64,000 nt of DNA, taken from contig JANLFX010000005.1 in NCBI GenBank assembly GCA_024653325.1, positions 1 to 64,000 of the forward strand, given 5' to 3'. Origin of the DNA: Anaerolineae bacterium. GTDB taxonomy: Bacteria > Chloroflexota > Anaerolineae > JACIWR01. Under the pieces are notes generated by a model. That model did no database searches, was not told the DNA's origin, and saw nothing but the letters and a program-made list of their open reading frames with translations. Positions 26,629 to 54,754 of the stretch are shown here, in pieces. The position numbers and the translations under genes are program-made. Numbering within the stretch: the first letter of the stretch is position 1; each line of letters starts with the position of its first letter.

Positions 26629-26695
26629 TTGACAAAATTAAGATTTTGATTTATGATATATATATGGGTTTCTTTCTTTACAGAAAGAAATAAAC
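26629..26695 (+). promoter_or_regulatory. Consensus promoter (TTGACA-N17-TATGAT) plus palindromic operator tttctttc-tttacag-aaagaaa upstream of the ROK regulator
   Basis: AT-rich island in a GC-rich genome. A perfect -35 element, 17-bp spacer and near-consensus -10 are immediately followed by an 8/8 inverted repeat. Confidence 0.45.
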
Positions 26696-26751: not shown

Positions 26752-27978
26752 ATGGGCGGAACCATGAATTTGGTTGGCAATCCCTACTTGATGAAACAAC
26801 TAAATCGTTCCGCTATTCTGGGACTTCTTCGTGAACGCGGTCCTCTTTCCAGATCAGATGTTGCCAAAATTCTGAACCTCAGTCCACCTACTGTGACTCG
26901 TATCGTGAATCAGCTTATCGAGGAAGGTTTGTTGTGCGAGGGCGAAACAGCCGAGTCCGTGACCAAAATAGGTCGTCCACCCACTTTGCTGCACTTCAAT
27001 TTCTCGGCCTACATGGTGATAGGCGTGGATGTTGGTGGCACAAGGACGACCGGTGCCGTAGCTGACCTGCACGGTGACATCGTTTATCGGAGAACAATTC
27101 CTTCCATCCCTGATGGTGATCGGTCCCGCAGTTTGCCCTCTCTCTTGGATTTTTTGGGTGAGCTTTTGGAAGCTGCTCCTGTTCCACGCGAGAAGGTTCG
27201 TGGTATCGGCGTGGGGGTGCCTTCCGTTGTGCTAAGCCAAGATCACTCCGTGGCCTGGGCTCCCGCTTTCGGTTGGCGTAACGTGCCTCTCAAGAATCTG
27301 GTGGAAGATCGCTTCGGGATTGCCGCTTTTATCGAGAACGATGTCAATCTGGCCACACTGGGGGAGAGTCAGTTTGGCATTGGCCGTGGCGTTCAAAATC
27401 TGGTGTGTATTTTTGTCGGCACCGGGATCGGCGGTGGGCTGATTCTGAATGGCGAACTGTACCGAGGGCATGAGGGAGCTGCTGGTGAGGTAGGCTACAT
27501 GATTCCCCGGCCCGATTTTTTGCAGCACTCTTATGATGATGAGTTCGGGTGTCTGGAGAGTCTGGCTGCAGGTCCCGGCGTCGTGCGGCGAGCAAAAGAG
27601 GCCATCCAGGCCGGAACTCAGACCAGTCTTAGCATGGGCAACCCGAACGAGTTGACCGCCAAACAGGTCTTTCAAGCTGCCCGGGATGGGGATGCCCTGG
27701 CCCAGGAAATTGTGACTGAGACGGCGAATTATCTGGCTCAGGCAGTAGCCAACGTGGCCTGCACACTTAATCCGGAGATGATCATCTTAGGAGGAGCACT
27801 GACCCGCTCGAGTGATCTGCTTTTAGAGCCTATCAGGGAATGCGTACGTCGGGTGGTGCCGTTTGTGCCGGAAATTGTGCTTACCGAACTGGGTGACGAT
27901 GCCGTCCTTTATGGAGCCCTTGCCTTAGCTATACGCGCCACCCGTGAGCACATTTCCGTGCAGGGGAACGCTACCTAG
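26752..27978 (+). CDS. ROK-family transcriptional repressor (NagC/XylR-like; HTH + sugar-kinase fold)
   Basis: N-terminal wHTH 'LSRSDVAKILNLSPPTVTRIVNQLIEEGLL'. ROK glycine-rich 'IGVDVGGT', and the ROK Cys/His Zn motif region is present. Lower GC than its neighbours. Confidence 0.75.
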   Translation: MGGTMNLVGNPYLMKQLNRSAILGLLRERGPLSRSDVAKILNLSPPTVTRIVNQLIEEGLLCEGETAESVTKIGRPPTLLHFNFSAYMVIGVDVGGTRTTGAVADLHGDIVYRRTIPSIPDGDRSRSLPSLLDFLGELLEAAPVPREKVRGIGVGVPSVVLSQDHSVAWAPAFGWRNVPLKNLVEDRFGIAAFIENDVNLATLGESQFGIGRGVQNLVCIFVGTGIGGGLILNGELYRGHEGAAGEVGYMIPRPDFLQHSYDDEFGCLESLAAGPGVVRRAKEAIQAGTQTSLSMGNPNELTAKQVFQAARDGDALAQEIVTETANYLAQAVANVACTLNPEMIILGGALTRSSDLLLEPIRECVRRVVPFVPEIVLTELGDDAVLYGALALAIRATREHISVQGNAT

Positions 27979-28050
27979 AACAGTGCAAGTTAGTCAGGAC
28001 GGTTTTTGTGGTGCCATGGTCCGCAAGTTCATCTGGTGAAGGAGGGCCTG

Positions 28051-28758
28051 ATGATTCCCGTACTCAATGTGGAGACGCTCACCCTCGATCAACTGGCCAA
28101 GACAATTGACCACTCGCTGCTTAAACCGGAATTGACCGATGAAGACGTTATTGCCGGTTGTGAGTTGGCCAAACGGTATCATGTAGCCTCGGTATGCGTC
28201 AAACCCTGTCATGTGCCGCTGGCAGCCCGTATTCTGGCCGGTTCCGATGTCAAGGTCGGCACGGTGATCGGTTTTCCCCACGGTCACAGCACTACCGCGA
28301 CAAAGGAGTTCGAGGCGCGTGAGGCAGTGGCCAACGGCGCGGAGGAGCTGGATATGGTGATCAACATTGGAGCCCTCCGCTCTGGTCACGATGATTTGGT
28401 GCGCGATGACATTCGGGCGGTGGTGAAAGCTGCTGGCAGCAAGGCCATTGTCAAGGTTATCCTGGAGAACCATTACCTGACAGACCAGGAGAAGGTACGG
28501 GCTTGCCGTCTGGCGGAAGAAGCTGGTGCTCACTACGTCAAGACCTCTACGGGATTCGCCCCGACCGGGGCGACGATTCAAGACCTCAAACTCATGCGGG
28601 CTTCAGTCAGCCCTCATATCGGGGTCAAAGCGGCCCACGGTGTGCGCGACCTGGATACGGCCCTGGAGGTCATCGCCGTGGGTGTAACCCGTATCGGGGC
28701 CACACAAACAGAGCGCATTCTGGAGGATTTCAGGCAGCGTAAGCAGCGTGAAACGTAA
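28051..28758 (+). CDS. deoC: Deoxyribose-phosphate aldolase
   Basis: 'IDHSLLKPELTDEDV', 'VASVCVKP', 'VIGFPHG' and Schiff-base Lys region 'VKTSTGF' fit DeoC. AAGGAGG RBS before the chosen ATG. Confidence 0.75.
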   Translation: MIPVLNVETLTLDQLAKTIDHSLLKPELTDEDVIAGCELAKRYHVASVCVKPCHVPLAARILAGSDVKVGTVIGFPHGHSTTATKEFEAREAVANGAEELDMVINIGALRSGHDDLVRDDIRAVVKAAGSKAIVKVILENHYLTDQEKVRACRLAEEAGAHYVKTSTGFAPTGATIQDLKLMRASVSPHIGVKAAHGVRDLDTALEVIAVGVTRIGATQTERILEDFRQRKQRET

Positions 28759-28876: not shown

Positions 28877-30028
28877 ATGGATGTGATCCGAGCAGCCGTC
28901 ATTGGGACGGGATTTATCGGTCCGGCGCACGTGGAGGCGTTACGCCGTCTGGGCATTGAGGTAGTGGGCATCGCCGGGTCCAGTCCGGAGCGGGCCCGGC
29001 CCAAGGCCGAGGCACTCAATATCCGCCAAGTCTACGCGGACTGGCGTGACCTGGTGGCCGATCCCTCGATCAATGTAGTCCACATTACTACCCCGAACTA
29101 CCTGCATTATCCCATGGCCAAAGCTGCTATTGAAGCCGGCAAGCATGTGGTCTGCGAGAAGCCACTGGCCATGAACTCTCAAGAATCCGCCGAGTTGCTG
29201 CAAATGGCCCAGCAGGCGGGCATTGTCCATGCGGTCAATTACAACATCCGCTTTTATCCCCTTTGTCAAGAAGCGCGGGCCCGCGCGGCCCGGGGTGACC
29301 TGGGCGAGGTGTATATCATCCGTGGCTCCTATCTCCAAGACTGGCTCCTCTACGAGACCGATTGGAACTGGCGGTTGGAGCCAGGGCTGGGCGGCAGTCT
29401 GCGTGCCGTGGCCGATATTGGCACTCACTGGCTGGACCTGACCAGCTTCATCACCGGTCTGCGCGTGCAAGCCGTCCTGGCCGACTTCCGCACTTTTATC
29501 CCCACTCGCAAAAAGCCCGCCAAACCCATTGATACCTTTGCCGGCAAGGAATTGAGACCGGAGGATTACATCGAGCAGCCCATCCACACCGAGGACTACG
29601 CCACCGTGCTCCTGGCCTACGAGGGTGGAGCCAGGGGGGTGATGACCGTCTCCCAGGTGTGCGCCGGACACAAGAATCGCCTGGCTTTTGAGATTGACGG
29701 GGCGAAATCGGCGATGGCCTGGGATTCCGAACGGCCTAATGAACTGTGGATCGGCCACCGCGATAGAGCCAATGAAGTGCTGATGAAAGACCCCTCATTG
29801 CTCACCCCTCAAGCGCGGGCCTTCGCCAGTTATCCCGGTGGTCATAACGAGGGCTTTCCCGATACTTTCAAGCAACTCTATCGCGCCGTGTATGGCTACA
29901 TCCGCGCCGGAGATCGCACCGCCCCACCCGATTTCCCGACGTTTGCTGACGGCCACGAAGAGATACTGCTTTGCGAAGCCATCGAGCGCAGCGCCCGCGA
30001 ACAAAAGTGGGTGGAGGTCGAGCGCTGA
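28877..30028 (+). CDS. Gfo/Idh/MocA-family NAD(P)-dependent oxidoreductase
   Basis: N-terminal Rossmann '[14 protein letters not shown]' and 'EKPLAMN' motif. Confidence 0.75.
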
Positions 30029-30079
30029 CCGATTTGCTGATTTGCCCGATTTGCTGATTTGCCCGATTTGCTGATTTTT
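30029..30079. repeat. Perfect 17-bp tandem repeat x3 (ccgatttgctgatttgc)
   Basis: Starts directly after the upstream stop codon and ends at the RBS of the next gene. Units 1 and 2 are identical; unit 3 differs only at its 3' end. Confidence 0.8.
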
Positions 30080-30094
30080 AAGGAGGGTATGACC

Positions 30095-31036
30095 ATGAAA
30101 ATCGGTTTGATGAGCGCCGCTTTCCCGAATTTGTCCCTGGAAGAACTGGCAACCTGGGCTGCGGAAAACGGGTTCCAGATGTTGGAATTGGCCTGCTGGC
30201 CAGCCGGTGAGGAAAAAGACCGCAAATACGGTGGCGTGGCCCATATAGACGTGGCAGCGCTGACTCCGGCCAAAGCCTCAGAAATCAACGGTATGCTGGC
30301 CGAGAAAGGGCTGGAAATCTCGTCTTTGGGCTACTATCCCAACGCTCTTCACCCCGACCCTGCCCACCGGGAGCACGTCATTGGCCACCTGAAGAAAGTT
30401 ATCCTCGGAGCCGAGATGCTTGGCGTGGGCATTGTGGGCACTTTTGTTGGCCGTGCCTGGAATCCTGAGCTCACCGGGCGCGATTGGCAAAAGGACCTGG
30501 ACTACAATTTCGCGGAGTTCATGAAAGTCTGGCCGGACCTGGTCAAATTTGCCGCCGACCACCACGTCAAGATCGCCATTGAAAACTGCCCCATGCTCTG
30601 GGCTGACACGTGGCCGGGTGGCTCTAACCTGCCTCACTCGCCTGCGCTGATCCGTCGCATGTTCGAGGCCGTGCCAGACGAGAATTTTGGTCTCAACTTC
30701 GACCCCTCACACCTGGTCTGGCAACAGATTGATTACATCCGCTTCGTCTATGATTTCGGGGATCGCATCTTCCACGTGCACGCCAAAGACATGGCTATAG
30801 ACGAGGAGATGTTCTACCAGGATGGTATCCTGGGTTGTGGCTTCCGCTGGCAGATACCTCGCCTGCCGGGACAGGGTCTGGTGGATTGGCAAGAACTGGT
30901 GGCGGCCCTCTACGATGTGGGATACGACTTTGTGCTCAGCATCGAGCATGAGGACCGGAACTGGGAAGGCTCAGAGGAACTGGTCAAGCGTGGATTCTTG
31001 CTGGCCAAGAAGACGCTGGAACTGTACGCGGGGTAA
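30095..31036 (+). CDS. Sugar phosphate isomerase/epimerase (xylose-isomerase-like TIM barrel)
   Basis: The pattern of conserved His/Asp/Glu metal ligands ('HVKIAIENCP', 'HVHAKD', 'SIEHED') fits the AP-endonuclease-2/IolE-like TIM family. Confidence 0.7.
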   Translation: MKIGLMSAAFPNLSLEELATWAAENGFQMLELACWPAGEEKDRKYGGVAHIDVAALTPAKASEINGMLAEKGLEISSLGYYPNALHPDPAHREHVIGHLKKVILGAEMLGVGIVGTFVGRAWNPELTGRDWQKDLDYNFAEFMKVWPDLVKFAADHHVKIAIENCPMLWADTWPGGSNLPHSPALIRRMFEAVPDENFGLNFDPSHLVWQQIDYIRFVYDFGDRIFHVHAKDMAIDEEMFYQDGILGCGFRWQIPRLPGQGLVDWQELVAALYDVGYDFVLSIEHEDRNWEGSEELVKRGFLLAKKTLELYAG

Positions 31037-31109
31037 CATCTGAAAAACATGCTGCGTGTTGCGTATTCCGTTACGCAACACGCAGCACGCGATACCTGTA
31101 GGAGGCATG

Positions 31110-32054: not shown

Positions 32055-32061
32055 AGGTGGC

Positions 32062-32877: not shown

Positions 32878-32898
32878 GTTTGCATCGGGAGGATTTCT

Positions 32899-33999: not shown

Positions 34000-34049
34000 A
34001 AAATGTATCGCCATTCGCTATTCGCTATTCGGATTTACCGGAGGAGAAA

Positions 34050-35150
34050 GTGGCAGAGGTCAAGGTTGAGAATGTCTCGGTGCGGTTTGGCCGTAACCTG
34101 GTATTGAAAGAAGCCAGTTTTCAGGTGGCCGACGGTGAACTGTGCGTCATCGTCGGGCCGTCTGGGTGTGGAAAGACCGTCCTGCTCAGAACAGTGGCCG
34201 GATTGACCCGGCCATTGGAGGGGAACATTTATTTTGACGGTAAGCTGGTGAACGATGTGGCTCCCAGCCATCGCGATGTGGCCATGTGTTTCCAGACCTA
34301 TGCTCTTTATCCTTACATGACTGTGCGCCAAAACTGGGAGTTCCCGTTGCGGGCGGTCAATCTGGCTAAAGAGGAGATTCAACAACGAGTGGCCAAGGTC
34401 ATGGAATTGACCCACATGGAACCCTTGATGAACCGTTACCCCAGGGAACTTTCGGGTGGACAGCAACAGCGGGTGGCTCTGGGCCGGGCCCTGGTCCGTC
34501 GCCCTCGCGTCTTCCTGCTCGACGAGCCCTTCGGCAACCTGGATGCGAAATTGCGGGTCGAGTTGCGGGCTACGGTGAAAAGGCTGCAAATGGACCTGGG
34601 CATCACTACCCTGCACGTCACTCACGACCAGGTTGAGGCCCAGGCGATGGGCGACAAAATAGTCGTCATGGCTATGGGTACTGTTCAGCAGGTGGGCACG
34701 CCGGAGGAAATTTACGAGCAACCGGCCAACCTGTTCGTCGCCGGGTTCTTCGGCACACCCAGAATGAATTTCATCCCTTGCGAACTCAAACGCGATGGGG
34801 GACGGCTTTTCTTCGTCCATCCGGCTTTCACTTTACCGGTGCCCCCGCACCAGGTGGCTGCTGTGGAAGCGGGTATCAGTGACACGGGCCTCATTCTGGG
34901 CATTCGCCCGGAGAACGTGTCCATTTCTGCTTCACCGCAGCCCGATGCGATCCCGGTCGAGGTCTACGTGCTGGAACCGCAAAGCAATGAGCTTATTGTG
35001 GATCTGGCCTTCGGTGATATGATCCTGAAATCGCGTGCCGACCGGGACGAACTCGGGTTCGAGCCGAGGCTGAACCAGAAAGTTTACGCCAGGTTTGCCA
35101 GCGATTTCATTCACGTCTTTGACCGCGAATCTCAGCTACGGATCGCCTGA
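34050..35150 (+). CDS. ABC transporter ATP-binding protein, MalK/UgpC-like (copy 2)
   Basis: Walker A 'GPSGCGKTVL', signature 'LSGGQQQRVALGRAL', Walker B 'VFLLDEPF'. Paralogous to the upstream ATPase. Confidence 0.8.
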   Translation: MAEVKVENVSVRFGRNLVLKEASFQVADGELCVIVGPSGCGKTVLLRTVAGLTRPLEGNIYFDGKLVNDVAPSHRDVAMCFQTYALYPYMTVRQNWEFPLRAVNLAKEEIQQRVAKVMELTHMEPLMNRYPRELSGGQQQRVALGRALVRRPRVFLLDEPFGNLDAKLRVELRATVKRLQMDLGITTLHVTHDQVEAQAMGDKIVVMAMGTVQQVGTPEEIYEQPANLFVAGFFGTPRMNFIPCELKRDGGRLFFVHPAFTLPVPPHQVAAVEAGISDTGLILGIRPENVSISASPQPDAIPVEVYVLEPQSNELIVDLAFGDMILKSRADRDELGFEPRLNQKVYARFASDFIHVFDRESQLRIA

Positions 35151-35321
35151 CACCCCATCCTGTTCAGTTTTACAGGAGTTACATAGAGCAGCAACTGTTT
35201 ATTCTGGTCTGATGATGCACGAGGGAAAGGGGGGATGCCTATCGCTCAAAGGCCACTCGATTTGTGAAGTCAATGAAGGCGTATTTAATGAATCGGCGCT
35301 TTGAACAAGGAGGAGTTAGAA

Positions 35322-36863
35322 ATGCACACCAGGAGAATAGCTGCGTTTTCGGTTTTTGTGGTGTTGGCTATGGTGCTGGCGAGCTGCGCCACGCCGACGC
35401 CAGAGAAGATCATCGTCACCCAGCCCCCGGTCGAGGTGACTCGTATTGTGGCCGGCACACCGGAGACCATCGTCGTCACTGCCACACCTGCACCGGTGAA
35501 GGAAGAGGTCACCCTGCGTATCCTGAGCCTGGCCTGGCCGCAGACGCCGGTGGAGCAGGAACTCGCCAACAAGTACTTCACTCCTCAGACGGGCATAAAG
35601 GTGGAGATCACCGGTCCGCCCTACGAATTCGTCGAGTCGAAGGTGCGCGAGATCTGCGCCTCGCAGAGCTCCGAGTACGATCTCTTCGAGTACGACAGCC
35701 AGTGGTACGGTGGGGCCATCATGAACGGCTGCTTCGAACAGTTGGACCCATACTTCAAGAAGGACGGCCTTGACTATGACTCCACGTTTGTGCAGCCGTA
35801 TGCTACCTACAACGGCCGCTGGCCCGTGCCCGTCGGCGTGTTGACCGGCGAACTGGACTGGAAAGACTACACCGATGTGCCGCTCTACTTCATCCCCTGG
35901 ACCATCGGCACCATGATTCTCAGCTACCAGCCAGACCTGTTTGTGGAAGCCGGTATCGTGGACGCGGAGGGAAAGGCCAAACCACCGGACACCTGGGAAG
36001 AGTTTCTGGAAGACGCCAAGGCCCTCACCGTGGACGTGAATGGGAACAACTTGCGGGACAACCCCGACAAATTTGATCCCAAGAACGTGAAGCGCTACGG
36101 CCTGGGCTGGTATGCCTGCCGCATCAGCGACGGCGTCACCCAGCAATGGCTGCCTTTCCACGTCTCCTACGGGGCCAGGTTCTGGGATGAAAACACCTGG
36201 CAGGCGGAAGGCATCATCAACTCCCCCGAGGCGGTTCAGGGTTGCGAGATGTTCGCCCGCTTCTACAAGGAGGGTGTGGTAGATCCGGCCACGGCCACCT
36301 GGTTCGTGAGCGAGATTCTGGGTGCGGCCCAGACTGACAAGTTCGCCATGTCCTTCACCTGGGTCAGCTTCGCCGGTGCTTACGACGACCCCTCCGTCTC
36401 CCAGACCGCCGGCAAGTGGGCCTATGCTCCCTTCCCTGGCCACCAGTTGCCTGACGGCACCATCAGGCGCGCTGCCACCTACGGTTCCCAGGGTATGGGT
36501 ATCAACGCCTTCTCCAAGCAGAAGGAAGCCGCCTGGGAGTACATGAAGTGGTACATGTCGCCTGAGGTCCAGAAGATGCTGGTGGATGACAAGCGAGCCG
36601 GCTTCGCCTCCGCCCGCGTGGACCTGCTGGATTATCAGATGGTACCCGGCACCGCCAAGTGGGCCTCGCTGACCAGCATCATCGAGGGCTATGGCTTCGA
36701 CGTCTGGACCTACCCCGAGTACGCCCAGTTACTCGACATCCAGCAGAACTACATGAACCTGGCCTACATCGGGCAGATCGGGTGTAAAGAGGCCCTGGAC
36801 CAGATCGCCGTATTGCAGCAGCGCATCCTGGACACCAGCCCCAACAATCCCAAGAACAAGTAG
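35322..36863 (+). CDS. ABC transporter extracellular solute-binding lipoprotein (family 1, sugar)
   Basis: Lipobox 'LASCATPTP' with a Pro/Thr linker. Size and adjacency to the permeases support the call. AAGGAGG RBS before the chosen ATG. Confidence 0.7.
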   Translation: MHTRRIAAFSVFVVLAMVLASCATPTPEKIIVTQPPVEVTRIVAGTPETIVVTATPAPVKEEVTLRILSLAWPQTPVEQELANKYFTPQTGIKVEITGPPYEFVESKVREICASQSSEYDLFEYDSQWYGGAIMNGCFEQLDPYFKKDGLDYDSTFVQPYATYNGRWPVPVGVLTGELDWKDYTDVPLYFIPWTIGTMILSYQPDLFVEAGIVDAEGKAKPPDTWEEFLEDAKALTVDVNGNNLRDNPDKFDPKNVKRYGLGWYACRISDGVTQQWLPFHVSYGARFWDENTWQAEGIINSPEAVQGCEMFARFYKEGVVDPATATWFVSEILGAAQTDKFAMSFTWVSFAGAYDDPSVSQTAGKWAYAPFPGHQLPDGTIRRAATYGSQGMGINAFSKQKEAAWEYMKWYMSPEVQKMLVDDKRAGFASARVDLLDYQMVPGTAKWASLTSIIEGYGFDVWTYPEYAQLLDIQQNYMNLAYIGQIGCKEALDQIAVLQQRILDTSPNNPKNK

Positions 36864-36937
36864 CCTGTGTACAAAATTCGGGTAGACAGGGGATCACCCC
36901 TGTCTACCCTTCTCCCTTTCGCGAAAGGAGACTTCGA

Positions 36938-38041
36938 ATGGCTAACAAGGGCAAGGTCAAAGTCGGAATTATTGGCTCACAATTCGAAGCGGATATTCAT
37001 GCTGCCTCTTTTCAGATTATGCCGGAGGAAGCCGAGGTCGTGGCTGTGGCCTCGCCGACGCCCGGTCACCCCGAAGCATTGGCCAAGAAGTACGGTATTC
37101 CCCGCGTCTTCCATGACTACCGTGAGATGCTCAAAGAAAAAGACATCGAGATGGTCACCATTGCCGCGCCGAACTATCTGCACGCGCAGATGACCATTGA
37201 TATCGCCAAGGCCGGTAAGCACGTGGTCTGCGAAAAGCCGCTGTGCATGACGTTAGAAGAAGCCGATGAAATGATTGAAACCTGCAAAAAGCAGGGCGTG
37301 TTGCTCATGTATGCCGAGGAGCTATTCTTCACCCCCAAATACGTCAAAGCCAAAGAGATGGCCGCCCAGGGTGCTTTCGGCAAGGTGTACCTGGTGAAGC
37401 AGAGCGAGAAGCATTTCGGCCCCCATGCCCCCTGGTTCTGGGATGTGGAACGCTCCGGCGGCGGTGTTTTCATGGACATGGGCTGTCATGGCATCGCCTT
37501 CTGCTACTGGTTCCTGGATCGCCCGGCCATCAAGTCCGTTCTGTGCCAGATGGGCACTTACGTGCACGGCGAGATCACCAAAGGCGAGGACAACAGCATC
37601 TGCATCATCGAGTTCGAGAATGGCGCTGTCGGTCTGGTTGAAGATAGCTGGGCACGGCGCGGCGGCATGGACGACCGTATCGAGGTCTACGGTGAGGGGG
37701 GCGTGACCTACGCCAACCTGCACATGGGCAATGCCCTGCCCACGTACAGTGAATACGGCTACGGCTACGCTGTGGAAAAAGCCCCCAGCACCAAAGGCTG
37801 GAGCTATCCTGTCTTTGAAGAACTGTGGAATTACGGCTTCCCACAAGAGATGGCCCACTTTGCCCGTTGCGTGCGGGGCAAGGAGGAGCCCATTGCGACC
37901 GGCGAGGATGGCCGCGTGGTGCAGGAAGTGCTTTACGCCGGATACGAATCGGCGCGCACCGGTTGCAAGGTCCAACTGCCTTTCCGCCCCAAGGGGGTGA
38001 AGAGACCCATTGATTTGTGGTTCGCACCTCACGGGGGTTAA
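36938..38041 (+). CDS. Gfo/Idh/MocA-family oxidoreductase
   Basis: 'VGIIGSQFEADIHAASF...' Rossmann N-terminus and 'EKPLCMT' motif. Confidence 0.75.
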   Translation: MANKGKVKVGIIGSQFEADIHAASFQIMPEEAEVVAVASPTPGHPEALAKKYGIPRVFHDYREMLKEKDIEMVTIAAPNYLHAQMTIDIAKAGKHVVCEKPLCMTLEEADEMIETCKKQGVLLMYAEELFFTPKYVKAKEMAAQGAFGKVYLVKQSEKHFGPHAPWFWDVERSGGGVFMDMGCHGIAFCYWFLDRPAIKSVLCQMGTYVHGEITKGEDNSICIIEFENGAVGLVEDSWARRGGMDDRIEVYGEGGVTYANLHMGNALPTYSEYGYGYAVEKAPSTKGWSYPVFEELWNYGFPQEMAHFARCVRGKEEPIATGEDGRVVQEVLYAGYESARTGCKVQLPFRPKGVKRPIDLWFAPHGG

Positions 38042-38044
38042 CCA

Positions 38045-39472
38045 ATGCTCAATCCATGGGCAGTGCTGACTCAGCATGACATCGAATCTATCCACCACAC
38101 CTCCCTTGCTATCCTGCGCGATGTAGGGGTGAGTCTGCCCAATCAAGAGGTCCTGGAGGCCCTGGCCGGAGCCGGCGCTGACGTGGACTTCAACCACCAG
38201 GTCGCCCGCATCCCTGAGCGCCTGGTGGTTGACTCTGTCGAACGGGCAGGCAAACAGTACATCCTCTATGGCCGTGATCCCAACCGTACCGCTCGCTTCG
38301 GCTATGGTGATTTCGTCCTGGTCTCCAGCCCGGGCCAGTTTGCCTGGGTGGATGAGGATGGCGGCCCGCGCCGACAGCCCACCCAGGAGGACGCGCGCGC
38401 CGGTATTCTTGTCAGTGACGCACTGGAGCACATTGACATCGTCGGGGCCATGGGCATGCCCCTGGACATCCCCGCCGAGTACCGCGACGTGTGGATGGCT
38501 GCCGAATTGGTCAAAAACTCGACCAAGCCCACCCACGTGTGGGTGGCGAACGGCAGGTCGCTGGAGTACATCCTGCGCATCTACGAGGCGGTGAGCGGCG
38601 GCCGCCAGGCTCACCGCCAACGCCCGATGATCGCCGCCTTTATCGAACCTATCAGCCCACTCCGCTTCCCCGAGACCGGGCTCGAAATTCTCATCACCTG
38701 TGCCCGCTATGGCTTGCCTATCGCCTTCGGGCCCATGGTCCAGGCCGGGGCTACAGGTCCGGCTACCCTGGCCGGTACGTTAGCCCTGGAGAATGCGGAG
38801 ATACTGGCCGGAATCGTTCTGGCCCAACTTTTCGGGCCGGGTGTGCCGGTGTGCTACGGCGGCATACCGCACATCATGGACATGCGCTCCTCGCAGATCA
38901 GCTTCGGTGCGCCGGAGCAGGGGTTGATGGCCGTGGCCATGACCCAGATAGCGCGCTATTATGGGCTACCGGTGTACATCAACGTCGGTCTTTCCGACAG
39001 CAAACGGGTGGATATTCAATCCGGCCTGGAACGGGGGATGACCTTGCTGATGGGGGCCCTGGCTGGGGCCGACACCTTTGGGCACATGGGTATCCTGGGC
39101 GCTGACCAGGCCGCCAGTCTGGAGCAGCTCATCGTGGACAATGAGATGGCTGCTTACATCAAACGTATCCTGCGGGGATTCGAGGTCAATGAGGATACTC
39201 TGGCCCTGGATGTGATCCGCAAGGTAGGCATCGGGGGCAACTTCTTGGGAGAAGCACACACTCGCCAGCATTTCCGGCAAGAGCTATGGTTCCCCACCAC
39301 CTTCGACCGGCGGCGCTGGGATGAGTGGTGGGCCGCCGGGGCCAGGTCCATGGCCGATTGGGCGCACGAGCGCAAAACGCAGATTCTGGCCGAACACCGT
39401 CCGCCGTCATTAACACTGGAACTGACCCGCGAGCTTGACGACATCGTCGCTGCTGCCCGGCGTGAAAGGTGA
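38045..39472 (+). CDS. MttB-superfamily (trimethylamine methyltransferase-like, non-Pyl) methyltransferase
   Basis: N-terminus 'LTQHDIESIHHTSLAILRDVGV' and overall ~475 aa TIM-barrel pattern match the MttB family. No in-frame amber codon seen. Confidence 0.55.
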   Translation: MLNPWAVLTQHDIESIHHTSLAILRDVGVSLPNQEVLEALAGAGADVDFNHQVARIPERLVVDSVERAGKQYILYGRDPNRTARFGYGDFVLVSSPGQFAWVDEDGGPRRQPTQEDARAGILVSDALEHIDIVGAMGMPLDIPAEYRDVWMAAELVKNSTKPTHVWVANGRSLEYILRIYEAVSGGRQAHRQRPMIAAFIEPISPLRFPETGLEILITCARYGLPIAFGPMVQAGATGPATLAGTLALENAEILAGIVLAQLFGPGVPVCYGGIPHIMDMRSSQISFGAPEQGLMAVAMTQIARYYGLPVYINVGLSDSKRVDIQSGLERGMTLLMGALAGADTFGHMGILGADQAASLEQLIVDNEMAAYIKRILRGFEVNEDTLALDVIRKVGIGGNFLGEAHTRQHFRQELWFPTTFDRRRWDEWWAAGARSMADWAHERKTQILAEHRPPSLTLELTRELDDIVAAARRER

Positions 39473-39592
39473 GCAGTTAATGGGCCGTGGGGGGACTCAC
39501 GCTCCTGGCCGGTCTCTCGACTGACCAGGGGGCACGGTCGGGAGACCGCGCCCAGCAATTTATCAATTCGATATAATCGGGGGCGTTTTTTT

Positions 39593-40579
39593 ATGACTCA
39601 ACCAGTTCACTTTATTGGAGTGGACCTGGGCGGGACGACAATCACTGGTGGAGCGGTTAATGTCGTGTCTGGCCAGGTCCTCGGTCGCCAACAAATTCCC
39701 ACGCTGGCCAAAGAAGGCCACGATGCGGTCATGGCCCGCATGGTGGATTTAGTCCACACCATCATAGCCGATGCTGCCCTGAGCAAAGAGGACATCGGGG
39801 GTATCGGGGTGGGCCTGCCAGGCGTGTTGGACATGGAACGGGGCATAACCCTGTTTCTACCGAACTTACCCGGCGCCTGGCGCAACGTTCCACTGAAAGC
39901 AACCATGGAGGCTGGTACCGGGCTTCCCACCTACATGCTCAACGATGTGCGCTCTTTCACTCTGGGCGAGAAGACCTTCGGCGCCGGGCGTGAGGTGCAT
40001 ACCATGTTCGGCCTGGCCATCGGCACGGGCATTGGCGGAGGAATGGTGATCAACGGGCAATTGCACCTGGGCCTTGATGGAACGGCTGGAGAGGTAGGGC
40101 ATCAGATTATTGACCCGTATGGCCCGCCCTGTGGGTGCGGCAGTCACGGTTGTTTGGAAGCCTTCGCCAGTGGTCCGGCCATCACTGCCATGGCCCTCAA
40201 AGCTATCACCCAGGGCCTGACTACCAAAATCGCCGAGATGGTTGATTACGATCTGAATAAGGTCACGCCGGAGATCGTTTGCCGCGCAGCCCAGGCCGGA
40301 GACCCTATCGCTATAGACATCTACGAGCGGGCCGGTTTCTACATCGGCGTGGGGGTGGCCAATCTGATCACCATCATCAGCCCGCAGATGGTAGTGATCG
40401 GCGGTGGGGTGGCCCAGGCCGGCGAGCTGCTCTTCGCCCCTATCCGCCGCACGGTGCAGGAGCGCGTCCACGTTACACCGTTGGAAAAAGTGCAAATCGT
40501 GCCCGCCCAACTAGGCACCAGTGCCGGTTTGATCGGGGCGGCGGTGTGGGCCTCCTTACAAACAGCGCTAGGGAAGTAA
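39593..40579 (+). CDS. ROK-family sugar kinase (no HTH)
   Basis: 'IGVDLGGTTI', 'GIGGGMVINGQ' and Zn motif 'CGCGSHGCLE' fit the ROK glucokinase-like family. Confidence 0.7.
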   Translation: MTQPVHFIGVDLGGTTITGGAVNVVSGQVLGRQQIPTLAKEGHDAVMARMVDLVHTIIADAALSKEDIGGIGVGLPGVLDMERGITLFLPNLPGAWRNVPLKATMEAGTGLPTYMLNDVRSFTLGEKTFGAGREVHTMFGLAIGTGIGGGMVINGQLHLGLDGTAGEVGHQIIDPYGPPCGCGSHGCLEAFASGPAITAMALKAITQGLTTKIAEMVDYDLNKVTPEIVCRAAQAGDPIAIDIYERAGFYIGVGVANLITIISPQMVVIGGGVAQAGELLFAPIRRTVQERVHVTPLEKVQIVPAQLGTSAGLIGAAVWASLQTALGK

Positions 40580-40586
40580 CCAGGTC

Positions 40587-41711
40587 ATGGACCATCGCGA
40601 GCGCGTGCTGGCTGCCGTCAACCATCATGAGCCGGACCGGGTGCCAACGGCCTTGTGGGGCAGCGCCTATGGGCTCACCGATCCCTTGTATTTCGACCTC
40701 CTGAAACACCTGGGTCTGGGTGATCCGGTACCACCGTTCCGGCAGCGGCATGGCCACACGGTGAACTACTACGATGATCGGGTGCTGGATGCCCTCGATA
40801 CCGACGTGCGCCATGTCTGGCTGGGCTTTACCGATCTGGGGGGGCCGCCCCAGGGAGGGGGGCTGGATGCCTGGGGTGTGGGCTGGCAGCAGACTGGCAT
40901 CTACCTGGGACCGACCTCTCATCCGCTGGAAGCGGCGAGCATCGAAGACCTGGAGACCTATCCGTGGCCGGAGGTAGAGTCTCTCGTTCGCCGCGACGAG
41001 CTGCGTCAGCGGGCCAAATATCTGAGAGAAAAAACGGATTACGCCGTAGTCGGACGGGCTGCTGATTCCTATGGCTTGCTGGAGCGCGCTTCCCAGCTAC
41101 GCCGGATGGACAGGTTCATGGTGGACCTGGCCCTGGACGAAGCTTTTGCCACCGCGCTGATCAGCAAAATAGCGGACGTGCTGTACCGATTACTGGAGAT
41201 ATACCTGGACACGGCCGGCCCATACCTGGACATCATGGAACTGCCTGGCGACGACTACGCCGCCCAGAACCCGCTCATCTCTCCACGCATGTTCGATAAG
41301 TTGTTCAAGGAGCAGTGGCGCAGACTGATTCACCTGATTAAAGAAGCCGCGCCTCATTGCCGGGTCCTTTTCCACTCCGACGGGCGCATGGAGCCTTTCC
41401 TGGGATCGTTAACCGACATCGGGGTGGACATCTTTCACTGTTTGGAACCCCTGCCCGGGGTGGACATGGCTCAGATCAAACGCGATTATGGGGATAGGCT
41501 TTGTTTCTGGGGGGCTATAGACATTAAGCAGGCGTTGCAAGGTGACGAGGCGCAAGTGGAGGCGGAGGTGCGAGAGCGCATCAGAGCATTGGCCCCGGGT
41601 GGGGGCTATGTCTTGGCTCCGGCCAATCACCTCCAGCCGGATGTTCCTGCGAAAAACGTCGTCGCTCTTTTCCAGGCTGCTCACAGGTACGGAGTATATC
41701 CGCTCGTGTGA
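40587..41711 (+). CDS. Uroporphyrinogen-decarboxylase (URO-D) family protein, MtaA/MtbA-like methyltransferase fold
   Basis: 'RVLAAVNHHEPDRVPTALWGS' N-terminus and C-terminal 'GYVLAPANHLQPDVP' are typical of URO-D-like methylcobamide methyltransferases. Confidence 0.6.
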   Translation: MDHRERVLAAVNHHEPDRVPTALWGSAYGLTDPLYFDLLKHLGLGDPVPPFRQRHGHTVNYYDDRVLDALDTDVRHVWLGFTDLGGPPQGGGLDAWGVGWQQTGIYLGPTSHPLEAASIEDLETYPWPEVESLVRRDELRQRAKYLREKTDYAVVGRAADSYGLLERASQLRRMDRFMVDLALDEAFATALISKIADVLYRLLEIYLDTAGPYLDIMELPGDDYAAQNPLISPRMFDKLFKEQWRRLIHLIKEAAPHCRVLFHSDGRMEPFLGSLTDIGVDIFHCLEPLPGVDMAQIKRDYGDRLCFWGAIDIKQALQGDEAQVEAEVRERIRALAPGGGYVLAPANHLQPDVPAKNVVALFQAAHRYGVYPLV

Positions 41712-41894
41712 AAGGTTCTAACTGAGGTCTGGCGAATTTAGAGGCGTCCACATCTTGGGATTAGCGACGGGGGAAAGCACAAGATGTGGGAGTTCATAGT
41801 AGCGGCTTCAGCCGCTTTTCACCATCCTGGACGGCTGAAGCCCTCACTACGACAAAAAAACGCCGATGTCCAAGTTCTAATTTAACGAGGAGGT

Positions 41895-43097
41895 TTGAAG
41901 ATGCACAAAATAACCATGTTAGGTACGGGTTTGATCGGCTTGTTTTACACGATGACATTGAACAAACGGCGCGGCGGTGACCGGGTGCACGTCGTGTATT
42001 CGCCGACGGAAAAACACGTCCAAAGTTTTGCCCAGGACTGGGGCATCCCCAAATGGACCACCAACATGGCGGAAGCCATCAACGACCCGGAAACGGATGT
42101 GGTGGTGGTTGGGCTGCCGAATTTCGTGCACAAAGAGGCGGTTATCATGGCCGCCGAAGCAGGTAAAGCCGTGTTGTGTACCAAACCGCTGGGCCGAAAC
42201 GCGGCTGAGGCCAAAGCCATGCTTGACGCAGTGGAAAAGGCGGGGGTTTTTCACGGCTACCTCGAAGACCTGGTCTACACTCCTAAGATGCTGAAATCCC
42301 TGCAGTTCGTCAAAAACGGAGCGCTGGGCAGGATATTATGGGTTCGCTCGCGGGAAACGCATGGCGGTCCGCACGGTGCCTGGTTCTGGGACCCGCAGTT
42401 GGCAGGCGGCGGGGCCATTGTGGACATGGGCTGCCACTGCATCGAAATTGCCCGCAATTTTATAGGCAAAGATAACCGGCCTGTGGAGGTCATGTGCTGG
42501 GCCGATACCCTGGTCCACCCCATTGAAAGCGAGGATCATGGCATTGGCCTGATCAGGTTTGAGAGTGGGGCCGTCGGCCAGTTCGAGGTGAGCTGGGCCT
42601 TCAGAGGTGGGATGGACCTGCGGGACGAAGTCGCGGGCACCGAAGGGACCATCTGGGTTGACCACTTCCTCAGAACCGGATTCGAGGTGTTTACCGCCGC
42701 TGGCCGGAAAGGGTACGTCTCCGAGAAGGCCGAGGGTGAAACTGGCTGGCTCTTCCCCGTGGGCGATGAGGTCCACGAACTGGGGTATCCACACATGTTC
42801 GACGATATGTTGAACGCACTGGATAGCAACCAGGAACCGATGGAGACTTTTTATGATGGCTACGTGGTGAATGCGATCATGGATGCCTGTTATCGCTCGG
42901 CTCAATCGAAACGCTGGGAGCCGGTGGAGCTCGAGGTGTGGCGGGGAAAACCTCAACCGGTCGAGAAGAAGGCTCCCGTGGAGTACGAGGGTCAGTACAT
43001 CGTCATTAAGGAAGAACACATGCCAGACGGCAAGACGAAATTGTTGCTCAAGGACAAGGCGACCAATAGGATCATCGAAAAGGTCGTGTCGAAATAG
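41895..43097 (+). CDS. Gfo/Idh/MocA-family oxidoreductase
   Basis: '[13 protein letters not shown]' and 'TKPLGRN' motifs. Confidence 0.75.
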
Positions 43098-43110: not shown

Positions 43111-43162
43111 GTTTGTCTATCGGATAGCCGACGGCACTGCCGTCGGCTATCCGTTTGTCTAT
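43111..43162. repeat. REP family C palindrome (ggatagccgacggcactgccgtcggctatcc) flanked by perfect 10-bp direct repeat gtttgtctat
   Basis: A 31-bp perfect palindrome sits between two identical 10-mers, which looks like a target-site duplication. Confidence 0.55.
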
Positions 43163-43236
43163 GGTTGGGGATGTGCTATAATACACACCGTGCTCGCCCG
43201 ACGTATACGGGTCCCATTTCATCGCTGGAGGTCTAC

Positions 43237-44631
43237 ATGATTGCACCGTCTCATCGGTTATCGTCATCCAGGCACACGACCAGGATGTGGTTATTTGTCC
43301 TGCTAATTCTCCTTGTTATCGTCAGTGGATGCACACAGGCTGCCACACCCTCTCCTGCGCCTGCTGCCACCGCCTGCCCAACGGATACTTTCACGCCAGT
43401 TCCTTCGCCTACGGCCACACCTTCACCAACTCATACCGCGACACCACGGCCCACTGTCACTCCTACCCTGACGCTTGCCCTGAGCAAGGTCGAAGGGCCA
43501 ACGCCAGTCCTCTCACCGACCTCGACACCCACTGCCACTGCCGGATCCACGGCCAGTGTGGCCCAGTCAAGTGCTACTGCGGATGGGACCGCTTCATCCA
43601 CTTCACCGCCCGGATCGGAACTCACCGGCGGGGGACTGGGCGGCCTGACCCCACCAACCGCGGCTGGCACTTATGGGCAGGTGCCCCTGGTGGCTATGGG
43701 GTCCGATGTTTGCCCGCTCACTGGGCTTAAGGTGGATCAGGCCAGGTTGGAACGTCGCCCGCTGGCGGTGAAAATCTCCAACGCGCCGGCCGTTGTCCGT
43801 CCCCAGGCTGGATTGAGCTTCGCTGATGTGGTCTTCGAGCACTATGCCGAAGGTAACCTGACCCGGTTCACCGCCGTTTTCCTGAGCAAAGACTGCGATA
43901 AAATTGGCTCCATCCGCAGTGCGCGGCTGATTGACCTGGAGATCCCGGCCATGTTCAAGTCCATGTTCGCCTATTCCGGGTCCAGCACCGGGGTGAAGGA
44001 AGAAATCCGCAACTCTGATTTCTTCGACCGGGTGATCTCGCCGGACTTCGGCCACGACAGTGCCTTCAAGCGCATTCCGGCCCCCGGCAAAGCTTTTGAG
44101 CACACCCTGTTCAGCGACACGGCCGCGTTATGGAAAGTGACGGACGAGCGCGGTTTGAACGGGCGGCAGGACCTTTCCGGGTGGACCTTCTCCGCCGAAC
44201 CCCCGGCAGGTGGCACGCCGGTTACCCAACTGCAAATCGTGTACTCCTCAGGATATGCGGACGCTGAATATTCTTATGATGCCAGTGCCGGCGGCTATCG
44301 CCGGGCGGTGCTGGGTGTACCCCATCGGGACGAACTCACCGGGCAGCAGCTCGTGGCCAACAACGTCATCGTCGTATACGCCCCTCACGTCGAATCTGCC
44401 ATATTGGAAGATACCCATTACGGCGGTCACTACTCCATCCAGATTCAAATCTGGGGTGAAGGTCTGGCACGTATCTTCCGTGACGGGCAGATGTACGATG
44501 TGCGTTGGTTGCGCCCTGGTCGCCACGACCTCATCCGCTTTGTGGATGCTTTCGGGCAGGCTTTTCCTTTCAAACCGGGCAACGTCTGGATTCAGGTCGT
44601 GCCGTTGGGGTTCAACATCGCCGTGAAGTGA
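43237..44631 (+). CDS. DUF3048-like secreted lipoprotein (YerB-like) with Pro/Thr linker
   Basis: Lipobox 'IVSGC' and a long PT/ST linker. Core 'VKISNAPAVVRPQAGLSFADVVFEHYAEGNLTRFTAVF' resembles DUF3048. Confidence 0.45.
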   Translation: MIAPSHRLSSSRHTTRMWLFVLLILLVIVSGCTQAATPSPAPAATACPTDTFTPVPSPTATPSPTHTATPRPTVTPTLTLALSKVEGPTPVLSPTSTPTATAGSTASVAQSSATADGTASSTSPPGSELTGGGLGGLTPPTAAGTYGQVPLVAMGSDVCPLTGLKVDQARLERRPLAVKISNAPAVVRPQAGLSFADVVFEHYAEGNLTRFTAVFLSKDCDKIGSIRSARLIDLEIPAMFKSMFAYSGSSTGVKEEIRNSDFFDRVISPDFGHDSAFKRIPAPGKAFEHTLFSDTAALWKVTDERGLNGRQDLSGWTFSAEPPAGGTPVTQLQIVYSSGYADAEYSYDASAGGYRRAVLGVPHRDELTGQQLVANNVIVVYAPHVESAILEDTHYGGHYSIQIQIWGEGLARIFRDGQMYDVRWLRPGRHDLIRFVDAFGQAFPFKPGNVWIQVVPLGFNIAVK

Positions 44632-44910: not shown

Positions 44911-45849
44911 ATGATACAGGAAACCGTCGCCCGTGTGACCGAGAACGTGAAACGAGTAATCGTCGGTAAGGACGAAGTGATCGAATTGGCGATGATCGCC
45001 TTACTCTGCGAGGGGCACGTGCTCATCGAGGATGTACCTGGTATTGGCAAGACCACCCTGGCCAAAGCTTTGGCTCGCTCGCTGGATTGCACTTTCCAGC
45101 GCATCCAGTTTACTCCCGACCTGCTGCCGTCGGACGTGACTGGCATTTACTTTTTCAATCAGAAAGCTCAGGAATTTCAGTTCAGGCCTGGCCCGGTGAT
45201 GAGCCAGATATTGCTGGCTGATGAGATCAACCGGGCTACACCCCGCACCCAAAGTGCCCTGCTGGAAGCCATGCAGGAGCGGCAGATAACCGTAGATGGC
45301 GAGACCAAGCCTTTGCCCCGTCCTTTCCTGGTCCTCGCTACCCAGAATCCCATCGAACTGGAGGGCACTTTCCCGCTGCCGGAGGCGCAGGTGGACCGGT
45401 TTCTGCTCAAGATCAAGATCGGGTATCCTACCGAAGAGGAGGAGAATCGCATCCTGTTGCGCTTTGAACAGGAAGATCCCCTGGCGGATTTGCAGCCGGT
45501 AGCGACTGCCAGGGAGTTACTGGATTTGCAGGCCGAGGTGCGCCGCGTCCACGTGGAACGATCGGTACGTGAGTATCTGGTGCGCGTGGTGCGCGCCACC
45601 CGCGAACACCCCTCGGTGGACCTGGGGGTCAGTCCGCGAGGCACTTTGTCCCTATACAAAACCGCCCAGGCCCTGGCCGCTATCCGTGGCCGCGACTACG
45701 TCATCCCGGACGACATCAAAGAACTGGCTCCTTACGTGCTGACCCACCGCATCCTTATCAGCCCCCAGACCCGCCTGCGGGGCCGCACTCCGGAGGAAGT
45801 GGTCATGGAAGTGATTAACGAAGTACCGGTGCCGGTGGAGAAACTGTAG
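44911..45849 (+). CDS. MoxR-family AAA+ ATPase
   Basis: '[21 protein letters not shown]' Walker A, '[23 protein letters not shown]' Walker B/sensor, and length ~312 aa. Confidence 0.85.
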
Positions 45850-45852
45850 CGG

Positions 45853-47238: not shown

Positions 47239-47239
47239 G

Positions 47240-54750: not shown

Positions 54751-54754
54751 TGCC

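Follow-up and report, generated by a model that had tools for sequence, protein, structure and literature searches.

The corrinoid protein of an MttB-family methyltransferase may be encoded away from it and shared: MtqC of E. limosum is unlinked and works with three MttB paralogues (PMC12155760), and sharing is also documented for MtgC/MtgD of Ruegeria (PMC12478193). In the glycine betaine methyltransferase MtgB, the substrate is held by Y97, R312, H348, and F356, as defined by mutagenesis and a ligand-bound structure, and R312 is retained in members with known (acidic quaternary amine) substrates (PMC13080624). Core methionine synthases, i.e., core MetE proteins, accept methyl groups from methylcobalamin or methylcorrinoid (PMC7005905, PMC7857596). 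Most non-pyrrolysine MttB-family proteins have no known substrate. Here, we describe a 64-kb stretch of DNA from an Anaerolineae bacterium (positions 1 to 64,000 of contig JANLFX010000005.1; hereafter the window), in which a non-pyrrolysine MttB homologue (MttB-like) and a divergent homologue of the URO-D/MtaA family (URO-D-like) are encoded in the distal part of a sugar-type operon, each next to a Gfo/Idh/MocA dehydrogenase (GFO).

Our preferred reading, to which we give a rough probability of 0.45, is that these genes make up two parallel modules, each of a dehydrogenase and a corrinoid methyltransferase, which demethylate a methylated carbohydrate or cyclitol with a corrinoid protein encoded elsewhere. 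We infer methyl transfer as the chemistry, the role of substrate:corrinoid methyltransferase (methyltransferase 1, MT1) for both enzymes, and a methylated sugar or inositol as the substrate. For the window, 46 long likely genes, picked from 96 open reading frames (ORFs) of at least 150 amino acids, were scanned with Pfam. The scan for the MttB-like clade (one genome per GTDB species) returned 80 loci, and the neighbourhood counts for this clade cover 83 loci and 1.24 Mb; the URO-D-like set comprises 81 loci (0.66 Mb), i.e., 80 from a metagenome scan plus L085, and individual loci are cited by such L numbers. NCBI entries labelled "MAG: ... [Anaerolineae bacterium]" match both the MttB-like and the URO-D-like protein at 100% identity.

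Two dehydrogenase-linked modules in one operon

Five genes assigned by Pfam lie on the + strand at 36938-43097: GFO2 (36938..38041; GFO_IDH_MocA), the MttB-like gene (38045..39472), a ROK-family sugar kinase (39593..40579), the URO-D-like gene (40587..41711), and GFO3 (41895..43097; GFO_IDH_MocA). The spacing is tight, with 3 nt between GFO2 and the MttB-like gene and 7 nt between the ROK kinase and the URO-D-like gene. They are the distal part of a 14-gene + strand operon (26752-43097), which runs from a ROK regulator with a helix-turn-helix (HTH) domain through DeoC, GFO1, a TIM barrel, two permeases, two MalK-type ATPases, and a solute-binding protein (SBP), and then through GFO2, MttB-like, ROK kinase, URO-D-like, and GFO3. 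The operon has a single promoter-like site and one strong terminator-like hairpin. The former, a sigma-70-like candidate on the + strand at 26629..26657, lies 5' of the regulator gene (TTGACA-17-TATGAT, 11/12 matches; consensus match only); the latter, resembling an intrinsic terminator and closing the operon at 43121..43153 (+), starts 24 nt past the GFO3 stop and has a 15-bp stem with 11 GC pairs and a T-rich tail. The first-pass annotation of this DNA, made from the sequence, thus had the gene content right on the Pfam evidence, i.e., a non-pyrrolysine MttB gene and a URO-D/MtaA-like gene amid Gfo/Idh/MocA dehydrogenases and a ROK kinase, with a sugar ABC transporter, an isomerase-like barrel, and a ROK repressor-type regulator upstream on the same strand; both proteins do belong to corrinoid-methyltransferase superfamilies, and the operon is a real carbohydrate/cyclitol operon.

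The order SBP, GFO2, MttB-like, ROK kinase, URO-D-like recurs in eight relative loci (L005, L088, L096, L113, L114, L115, L118, and L119), and GFO3 closes it wherever the contig reaches so far. Because the gene order recurs in these eight loci, the placement of methyltransferase homologues in a sugar operon is not a chance arrangement. The units that are conserved, however, are GFO2 with MttB-like and URO-D-like with GFO3, not an obligate MttB/URO-D pair. A GFO2 ortholog (at least 70% identity) lies directly 5' of the MttB-like gene in 40 of the 71 loci with room for it, in five phyla, and the gaps between the two in relatives are mostly 50-200 bp. Of the 39 loci in which the URO-D-like gene has room on both sides, 19 have a GFO3 ortholog next to it and 14 a ROK kinase. 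A URO-D-superfamily gene is found within 10 kb of an MttB-like clade gene in 11/83 loci, the MttB-like gene is missing from 74/81 URO-D-like loci, and the syntenic operons L006 and L008 have no URO-D-like gene. The pairing of the two methyltransferase homologues, which the first-pass annotation had treated as a unit, is therefore not conserved, since each gene keeps its own GFO as partner and is mostly found where the other is absent; of the synteny it had proposed to look for, the shared order is found in eight loci.

The MttB-like loci span Anaerolineae, Planctomycetota (Pirellulales, Phycisphaerae, and Sedimentisphaerales), Verrucomicrobiota, Acidobacteriota, Bacteroidota, and others. Elsewhere in this range the MttB-like gene has as neighbours GH16, GH95-like, fucosidase, and sulfatase genes, GFOs with TAT signals, a 3-keto-disaccharide hydrolase, and a NanM-like Kelch protein. 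The Planctomycetota GFO2+MttB-like pair adjoins recR, dnaX, and rpoN, and sits with periplasmic GFOs and 3-keto-disaccharide-hydrolase genes. The module of DeoC, GFO1, TIM barrel, and ROK kinase is often found 5' of the URO-D-like gene in relatives; a DeoC homologue is present in 12 fetched loci and adjoins GFO1 where checked (L085 and L112).

GFO2 is ~83% identical between phyla (range 72-96%) while its MttB-like partner drifts to 49-80%, and the 120 best database clusters for GFO2 are all at least 84% identical to the window protein. Such constancy across Chloroflexota, Planctomycetota, Verrucomicrobiota, and Acidobacteriota, seen in the orthologs of loci L004-L083 and L167, is an unusually strong constraint for the Gfo/Idh/MocA family, and it might reflect a tight complex or several interaction partners. 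On a chromosome labelled Deltaproteobacteria (L166, 9296-11796), a GFO2 91% identical to that of the window stands without an MttB-like gene, flanked only by fragments of a binding-protein gene (197 aa) and a Creatininase gene (41 aa); this looks like a decayed or recently transferred operon remnant.

The MttB-like and URO-D-like proteins

The MttB-like protein belongs to the MttB superfamily over its full length (MTTB, PF06253, residues 4-472, 346 bits). It is ~40% identical to the glycine betaine methyltransferase MtgB of D. hafniense (E 5e-82), matches MttB structures at E 5e-73, and retains the barrel core motifs of MtgB/MttB, i.e., SDM, SPE, GLSDSK, and DAQxGxE. Its ORF has no in-frame stop, the pyrrolysine position being Leu316 (GLSDSK versus GSXSDAK in MttB), and its 431 bits to the trimethylamine methyltransferase equivalog TIGR02369 lie below the cutoff of 525. 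The MtgB-type pocket is not kept: only H348 is retained, R312 is replaced by Tyr311 and F356 by Asp354, and the counterpart of Y97 is Q98 in the HMMER alignment or P96 in the MAFFT alignment. The positions of R312, H348, and F356 are Y/H/D (Tyr311, His347, and Asp354) in 88/94 clade members, and among 22 MttB-like homologues, the most distant at 57% identity, Gln98 and Asp354 never vary and Tyr311 hardly does. Given this invariance and the Tyr/His/Asp signature, the replacements are not the product of drift, and the predicted pocket is a distinct, selected substrate pocket on a conserved methyltransferase scaffold. The first-pass annotation had counted a loss of the conserved contact residues against its proposal of methyl removal; the substrate contacts of MtgB are indeed lost, which argues against a betaine substrate but not against methyl transfer.

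The best curated model for GFO2 is IolG with a full-length alignment, at 169.8 bits versus the TIGR04380 cutoff of 355, and its nearest structures are KanD2 (6jw6), GenD2 (6nor), and Thermotoga TM0414 (3ezy). The nearest PDB entries to GFO3 are GenD2 (6nor), LGDH (6a3f), and KanD2. The resemblance of both dehydrogenases to the aminoglycoside 3''-dehydrogenases KanD2 and GenD2 bears on another substrate class, in which the MttB-like protein would demethylate an N-methyl compound, i.e., a methylamine in protonated or quaternary form (e.g., an N-methyl amino sugar, an aminocyclitol, or an osmolyte), and the carbohydrate genes would handle the skeleton or be unrelated. The invariant Asp354, standing in place of the cation-pi Phe, could hold an ammonium group, and all six characterised MttB-family substrates are N-methyl (PMC12155760); the transporter, however, is of the CUT1 sugar type and not of a betaine/choline type, and the MttB-like protein lacks R312, which members acting on known (acidic quaternary amine) substrates keep (PMC13080624). 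Three relatives (L011, L114, and L118) have genes for a NagB-II-like glucosamine-6-phosphate deaminase and a PIG-L de-N-acetylase, with a second CUT1 transporter, just 3' of the operon (e.g., L114 12538-18076), which hints at an amino-sugar connection; these genes precede their own transporter, may be a separate operon, and are absent from the window. We regard an N-methyl substrate as quite unlikely.

The URO-D-like protein has the URO-D fold, with a PF01208 match of 78 bits over residues 135-368, i.e., the C-terminal two-thirds only. Its AlphaFold2 model (pLDDT 90) finds MtaA first in Foldseek (4ay7/4ay8, TM 0.67-0.77), then HemE-type decarboxylases, and then MetE. Its sequence similarity to solved structures is weak (MtaA 4ay7, E 3e-4), and it stays far below the cutoffs of the curated MtaA-type families (TIGR01463, 37.8 bits versus 235; NF040654, 36.5 versus 400). 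NCBIfam gave it no match to a HemE model at E up to 1e-5, and its context is carbohydrate. The zinc ligands of MtaA, which we take to be a His-x-Cys...Cys motif that activates the thiol acceptor, are changed here: the zinc cysteines are absent, and the aligned residues, H263-S-D265 and N347-H348, are invariant in 23 homologues, as are His284 and Glu287. All of these invariant residues are placed at the C-terminal ends of barrel strands in the AlphaFold2 model. On this evidence, the URO-D-like protein is neither HemE nor a thiol-methylating MtaA/MtbA, and it may carry a metal site with O/N ligands suited to ether or hydroxyl activation.

In public databases, the two proteins are annotated as a trimethylamine methyltransferase and a uroporphyrinogen decarboxylase, and one could take these names at face value, i.e., a betaine/trimethylamine methyltransferase and a heme-pathway or MtaA-like gene that ended up in a sugar operon without any functional meaning. 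The synteny with the GFO partners, conserved across phyla, already contradicts such a reading, as do the 3-nt and 7-nt spacings within an operon of one promoter-like site and one terminator-like hairpin; the MttB-like protein has neither pyrrolysine nor a betaine pocket, and the URO-D-like protein drew no HemE model. We find this explanation scarcely credible.

Corrinoid partners and the proposed demethylation

Among relatives, corrinoid-related genes are found beside the URO-D-like gene. L119 is the exception among loci with the gene order of the window in having a corrinoid protein gene right after GFO3 (TIGR02370-class, 226 bits, above cutoff). In L085, the URO-D-like gene, a gene for a 219-aa corrinoid protein, and one for a 345-aa Meth_synt_2 protein follow in a row, the first two overlapping by 4 bp. 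The Meth_synt_2 protein scores 209 bits to the NCBIfam model "methionine synthase" NF003317 (below the cutoff of 406) and shows the HxC...C pattern, and the row lies inside a cluster of ABC transporter, GFO, DeoC, TIM barrel, ROK, GntR, SIS, and SDR genes. This suggests that carbohydrate-derived methyl groups could go directly into methionine. The sugar cluster recurs in L112, where genes for a RACo/AcsV-like activase and a corrinoid protein come after it, and the RACo and corrinoid protein pair is seen again in L110; RACo is immediately 5' of the URO-D-like gene in L136, a corrinoid protein gene adjoins it in L153, and L160 and L161 have Meth_synt_2 (MetE-like) genes. In sum, corrinoid protein genes number 5 in the 0.66 Mb of URO-D-like loci versus 0 in the 1.24 Mb of MttB-like loci. 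The region of L085 at 10001-13707 also holds a gene of the metallo-beta-lactamase fold, alongside the URO-D-like gene, the corrinoid protein gene, and the gene consisting of the MetE C-terminal domain only.

A metagenomic island (L084, 1-21497) carries paralogues of both families, five of MttB and six of URO-D, interleaved with an FGGY sugar kinase and two ABC transporters of the CUT1 type; it resembles the expansions of methyltransferase paralogues seen in acetogens, although its setting is one of sugar genes. No corrinoid protein is recognisable in it, and the small proteins beside the MttB paralogues here and in L003 (269 aa and 262 aa, respectively), considered as cryptic corrinoid candidates, gave no Pfam hit.

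These neighbourhoods also bear on how the two enzymes may divide the work. They could be MT1 (MttB-like) and the enzyme that unloads the corrinoid protein (methyltransferase 2, MT2; URO-D-like) of a single three-component system, as in methanogen MttB/MttC/MtbA, with the corrinoid protein elsewhere. Both genes share one operon here and in eight other loci, the triad is complete with its corrinoid protein in L119, paralogues of both families are found together in L084 (5 of MttB and 6 of URO-D) as well as in three Bacteroidota loci (L002, L003, and L018), and the structure nearest to the URO-D-like protein is the MT2 enzyme MtaA. The genes, however, are far oftener apart: most of the 83 GFO2+MttB-like loci have no URO-D-like ortholog, 74/81 URO-D-like loci have no MttB-like gene, and even the syntenic L006 and L008 do without URO-D-like. 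The zinc cysteines with which MtaA activates its thiol are missing, and L085 has a separate MetE-type thiol methyltransferase, such that a URO-D-like MT2 would leave that locus with no MT1. We hold a single three-component system to be improbable. Because the core-MetE-like protein already fills the MT2 role in L085, its URO-D-like protein is most simply an MT1; with that role taken and with the two genes mostly apart, both enzymes are simplest explained as MT1 enzymes acting on a common corrinoid protein.

In our preferred reading of two demethylating modules, the operon would serve uptake and catabolism of a methylated neutral carbohydrate or cyclitol in a strictly anaerobic Anaerolineae bacterium. 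Each module would consist of an NAD-dependent Gfo/Idh/MocA dehydrogenase and a TIM-barrel enzyme descended from a substrate:corrinoid methyltransferase, which would transfer the methyl group of the substrate onto a small corrinoid protein in its Co(I) form. The gene for this corrinoid protein would lie elsewhere in the genome; the protein is probably shared, would be kept active by a RACo-type activase, and would be unloaded by a separate enzyme such as a folate methyltransferase or a thiol methyltransferase of the core-MetE type. After demethylation, the product would be handled by the other dehydrogenases, the isomerase-like barrel, the ROK kinase, and the DeoC aldolase. More speculatively, the partner dehydrogenase may first form a ketone beside the methoxy group; the enolisable ketone would give an enol methyl ether, whose leaving group for Co(I) attack would resemble the phenolates released by known O-demethylases. 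A CooS-type CO dehydrogenase encoded in the window (TIGR01702, 768 bits; 53980-59619, - strand) identifies the organism as anaerobic. Neighbours of this gene encode a CooF-like ferredoxin, NuoE-/NuoF-like subunits, and a 2Fe-2S/4Fe-4S protein, and there is no acetyl-CoA synthase gene near it.

Several observations weigh against this reading. The first-pass annotation was right in finding no corrinoid protein and no RamA/RACo-type activase in the window: none was detected there by Pfam (46 ORFs) or, across all six-frame ORFs, by a B12-binding hidden Markov model (HMM) built from five corrinoid proteins and by a RACo phmmer search. The 64-kb window likewise holds no MT2 candidate, and an Rfam search of it gave 0 hits, so that it contains no cobalamin riboswitch. 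Within 10 kb of MttB-like clade genes, corrinoid protein genes were found in 0/83 loci (1.24 Mb), because of which the putative corrinoid dependence of the MttB-like protein is argued from homology alone. Corrinoid-related neighbours are present at just 8/81 URO-D-like loci (L085, L110, L112, L119, L136, L153, L160, and L161). The MttB family has no known Lewis-acid metal site for ether activation, and its six known substrates are all N-methyl, none O-methyl (PMC12155760). The URO-D-like protein is only weakly MtaA-like (E 3e-4), its zinc cysteines are lost, and its metal site is a prediction. The substrate cannot be named from sequence. Finally, relative to its close relatives the window has no Creatininase/IolN-like gene, 1.0-1.15 kb being missing by blastn versus L088 (2606-3757) and L005 (10789-11822), with a 107-bp spacer at 39466..39572 (+) in its place. 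This looks like a clean 1.0-1.15 kb deletion, and since the gene is lost, the window copy of the pathway may be altered or incomplete.

The want of corrinoid proteins around the MttB-like clade (0/83 loci) also suits a different fate of both barrels, namely that they were recruited with methyl transfer lost and now act, without cobalamin, on the product of the partner GFO (a keto-sugar or an inosose) as a lyase, hydratase, isomerase, or hydrolase, in parallel with DgpA/DgpBC, LgdA/LgdB, and IolG/IolN. The partners are of the sugar-3-dehydrogenase type (nearest structures KanD2, GenD2, DgpA, and LGDH), other residues stand in place of both the betaine pocket and the zinc cysteines of MtaA, the His/Asp/His-type residues of the URO-D-like protein would suit the metal site of a hydrolase or lyase too, and the Planctomycetota pair keeps company with periplasmic GFOs and 3-keto-disaccharide-hydrolase genes. 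Hard to explain in this way are the 4-bp overlap with a corrinoid gene in L085 and the RACo genes alongside in L136, L110, and L112, and the MttB-like protein retains ~40% identity and the core motifs of MtgB. To our knowledge, neither methyltransferase clade has a cobalamin-independent member, which we count against this explanation. Taken for both proteins we think it unlikely, and for the MttB-like protein a cobalamin-independent function on keto-sugars is a serious rival.

As to the substrate, the pairing of sugar-/inositol-type dehydrogenases with a transporter, a kinase, and an aldolase of sugar type points to a methylated carbohydrate or cyclitol. The cyclitol idea finds support in IolG as the best model for GFO2, in the ROK-family regulator (26752..27978, +; Pfam ROK 211 bits; HTH_24/MarR N-terminal), and in the IolN-like gene of relatives: in ten loci (L005, L008, L009, L011, L087, L088, L114, L115, L118, and L119), a Creatininase-family gene sits between the MttB-like gene and the ROK kinase and matches the model of IolN (3-dehydro-scyllo-inosose hydrolase) at 95 bits versus a cutoff of 245. 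A creatinine/creatine substrate was rejected, as the Creatininase family also matches IolN, the context is carbohydrate, and the gene is absent from Planctomycetota loci.

A sugar is favoured by the glucokinase-like ROK kinase (Pfam ROK 245 bits; TIGR00744 223 bits, below the cutoff of 260; kinase type, since Pfam finds no HTH), the true DeoC, i.e., a deoxyribose-phosphate aldolase homologue (28006..28758, +; TIGR00126 deoC 252.6 bits, above the cutoff of 117; PDB 8qps, E 6e-70), the levoglucosan-like GFO1 and TIM barrel, and the glycoside hydrolase neighbours in other phyla. GFO1 (28877..30028, +) is levoglucosan-dehydrogenase-like (PDB 6a3f, 164 bits), its 191 bits to NF052479 falling below the cutoff of 650 for the levoglucosan/3-keto-glycoside pathway. 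The xylose-isomerase-like TIM barrel (AP_endonuc_2, 30059..31036, +; Pfam 129 bits) is weakly IolE-like (40 bits) and resembles the LgdB2 hydratase (8ro4), though at 30.7 bits to that structure it does not qualify as LgdB. The putative demethylation of a methyl-cyclitol or methyl-sugar, as proposed by the first-pass annotation, is thus supported in part, gaining from the IolG/TM0414 models, the IolN-like gene, and the corrinoid partners in relatives; judging from the ROK kinase and the bona fide DeoC, however, the end product may as well be a sugar as a cyclitol.

The transporter consists of two permeases (31056-32054 and 32062-32877, +; BPD_transp_1), two tandem MalK-type ATPases (32899-33999 and 34050-35150, +; ABC_tran, OB_MalK, and TOBE), and the extracellular CUT1-type SBP of 520 aa (35301..36863, +; SBP_bac_1 and SBP_bac_8), whose closest PDB entry is the trehalose/maltose-binding protein 1eu8 (73 bits). 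A GC-rich hairpin with a 13-bp stem (36880-36909) lies within the 74-nt gap between SBP and GFO2 and could be an intra-operon stabiliser or attenuator that boosts binding-protein expression.

Just 3' of the operon are a DUF3048 protein gene (43165-44631, +) with its own promoter-like site and a MoxR AAA+ ATPase/DUF58/DUF4129 trio (44911-48691, +), both seemingly unrelated to it. Elsewhere in the window, two adjacent large NTPase genes (9484-13156, -), one with AAA_35 and a C-terminal stretch like a CAP12/Pycsar TIR effector and the other with AAA_22, may form a STAND/TIR pair of the defence type; an SNF2-family helicase of 1216 aa that contains DUF3670 is encoded just ahead of a SWIM zinc-finger protein (19514-24112, +); and a GH99-like (endo-alpha-mannosidase family) protein is encoded beside a methionyl-tRNA formyltransferase-like gene (60945-62285, -).

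Significance and comparison with known systems

Methylated sugars and inositols are common in the plant, algal, and dissolved organic matter that reaches anoxic sediments. One may extend the two-module reading to a widespread oxygen-independent demethylation of carbohydrates and cyclitols, in which the GFO oxidises the carbon next to a methoxy or methylamino group and the MttB- or URO-D-family enzyme passes the methyl group to a shared corrinoid protein and on to methionine or folate; in this general form, we consider it somewhat doubtful. Our literature searches on sugar demethylation by corrinoid enzymes turned up only the oxygen-dependent P450 route (PMC6292453). If true, our reading would give the first non-betaine, carbohydrate-linked function for a large uncharacterised MttB clade (Planctomycetota, Anaerolineae, Verrucomicrobiota, Acidobacteriota, and Bacteroidota), an anaerobic counterpart of the P450 sugar demethylases, and an extra carbon and methyl source for major sediment heterotrophs. 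It would tie carbohydrate breakdown to cobamide demand and methionine synthesis, and correct "trimethylamine methyltransferase" and "uroporphyrinogen decarboxylase" annotations that inflate metagenomic estimates of methylamine cycling. The question is directly testable in vitro, because the Tyr311/His347/Asp354 signature, the two dehydrogenase-methyltransferase pairs, and candidate partners (the L119 and L085 corrinoid proteins and the L112 RACo) are now defined.

Among known systems, the glycine betaine:tetrahydrofolate methyltransferase MtgB/MtgC/MtgA of Desulfitobacterium hafniense and MtpB/MtcB/MtyB/MthB of E. limosum, which share MtqC, have the superfamily and the fold in common with the MttB-like protein. 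The MttB-like protein matches MtgB (9yce/2qne) at E 5e-82, with no pyrrolysine, Leu at that position in both, and the core motifs retained. The window protein differs in having R312 changed to Tyr, F356 to Asp, and Y97 not kept; its clade has no adjacent corrinoid protein in 83 loci and is partnered by a Gfo/Idh/MocA dehydrogenase in carbohydrate catabolism, not osmolyte use. The Methanosarcina trimethylamine:coenzyme M system MttB/MttC/MtbA likewise joins an MttB-family with a URO-D-family protein, and in L119 a corrinoid protein completes the set; in contrast to it, the window has no pyrrolysine, no MtaA/MtbA zinc cysteines, and no coenzyme M context, and the two genes are usually apart.

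The inositol pathway of Thermotoga maritima, which we take to comprise a ROK-family IolR, IolG, IolM, IolN, and IolO, and the rhizopine moc genes, with the MocA dehydrogenase, the MocC barrel, and the MocDEF oxygenase that demethylates 3-O-methyl-scyllo-inosamine, have a similar gene content; rhizopine catabolism is a methyl-cyclitol pathway that needs a dedicated demethylase. Shared with the window are a ROK regulator, GFOs (GFO2 matching IolG and TM0414/3ezy), a xylose-isomerase-like barrel, an ABC transporter, and, in relatives, the IolN-like gene. The scores, however, are below cutoffs (IolG 170 versus 355, IolN 95 versus 245), the window has no IolN-like gene, and those pathways have no ROK kinase or DeoC and demethylate by an oxygenase.

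As a working model of the chemistry we take the four-component phenyl methyl ether O-demethylases of acetogens and Desulfitobacterium (MT I, corrinoid protein, MT II, and activating enzyme) and archaeal Mto (PMC3727330, PMC8630106), in which the attack of Co(I) on an O-methyl group involves a small corrinoid protein and an ATP-dependent activase; RACo and corrinoid protein genes beside the URO-D-like gene in relatives fit this scheme. Their substrates are aromatic ethers with phenolate leaving groups, whereas here the context is sugar or cyclitol with a paired dehydrogenase, and the two are likened by model, not by sequence. The P450 6-O-methyl-D-galactose demethylase of marine Bacteroidota has the same role that we propose here, i.e., removing a methyl ether that blocks catabolism (PMC6292453, PMC9400963); it belongs to an unrelated family, depends on oxygen, and yields formaldehyde, whereas the organism of the window is an anaerobe.

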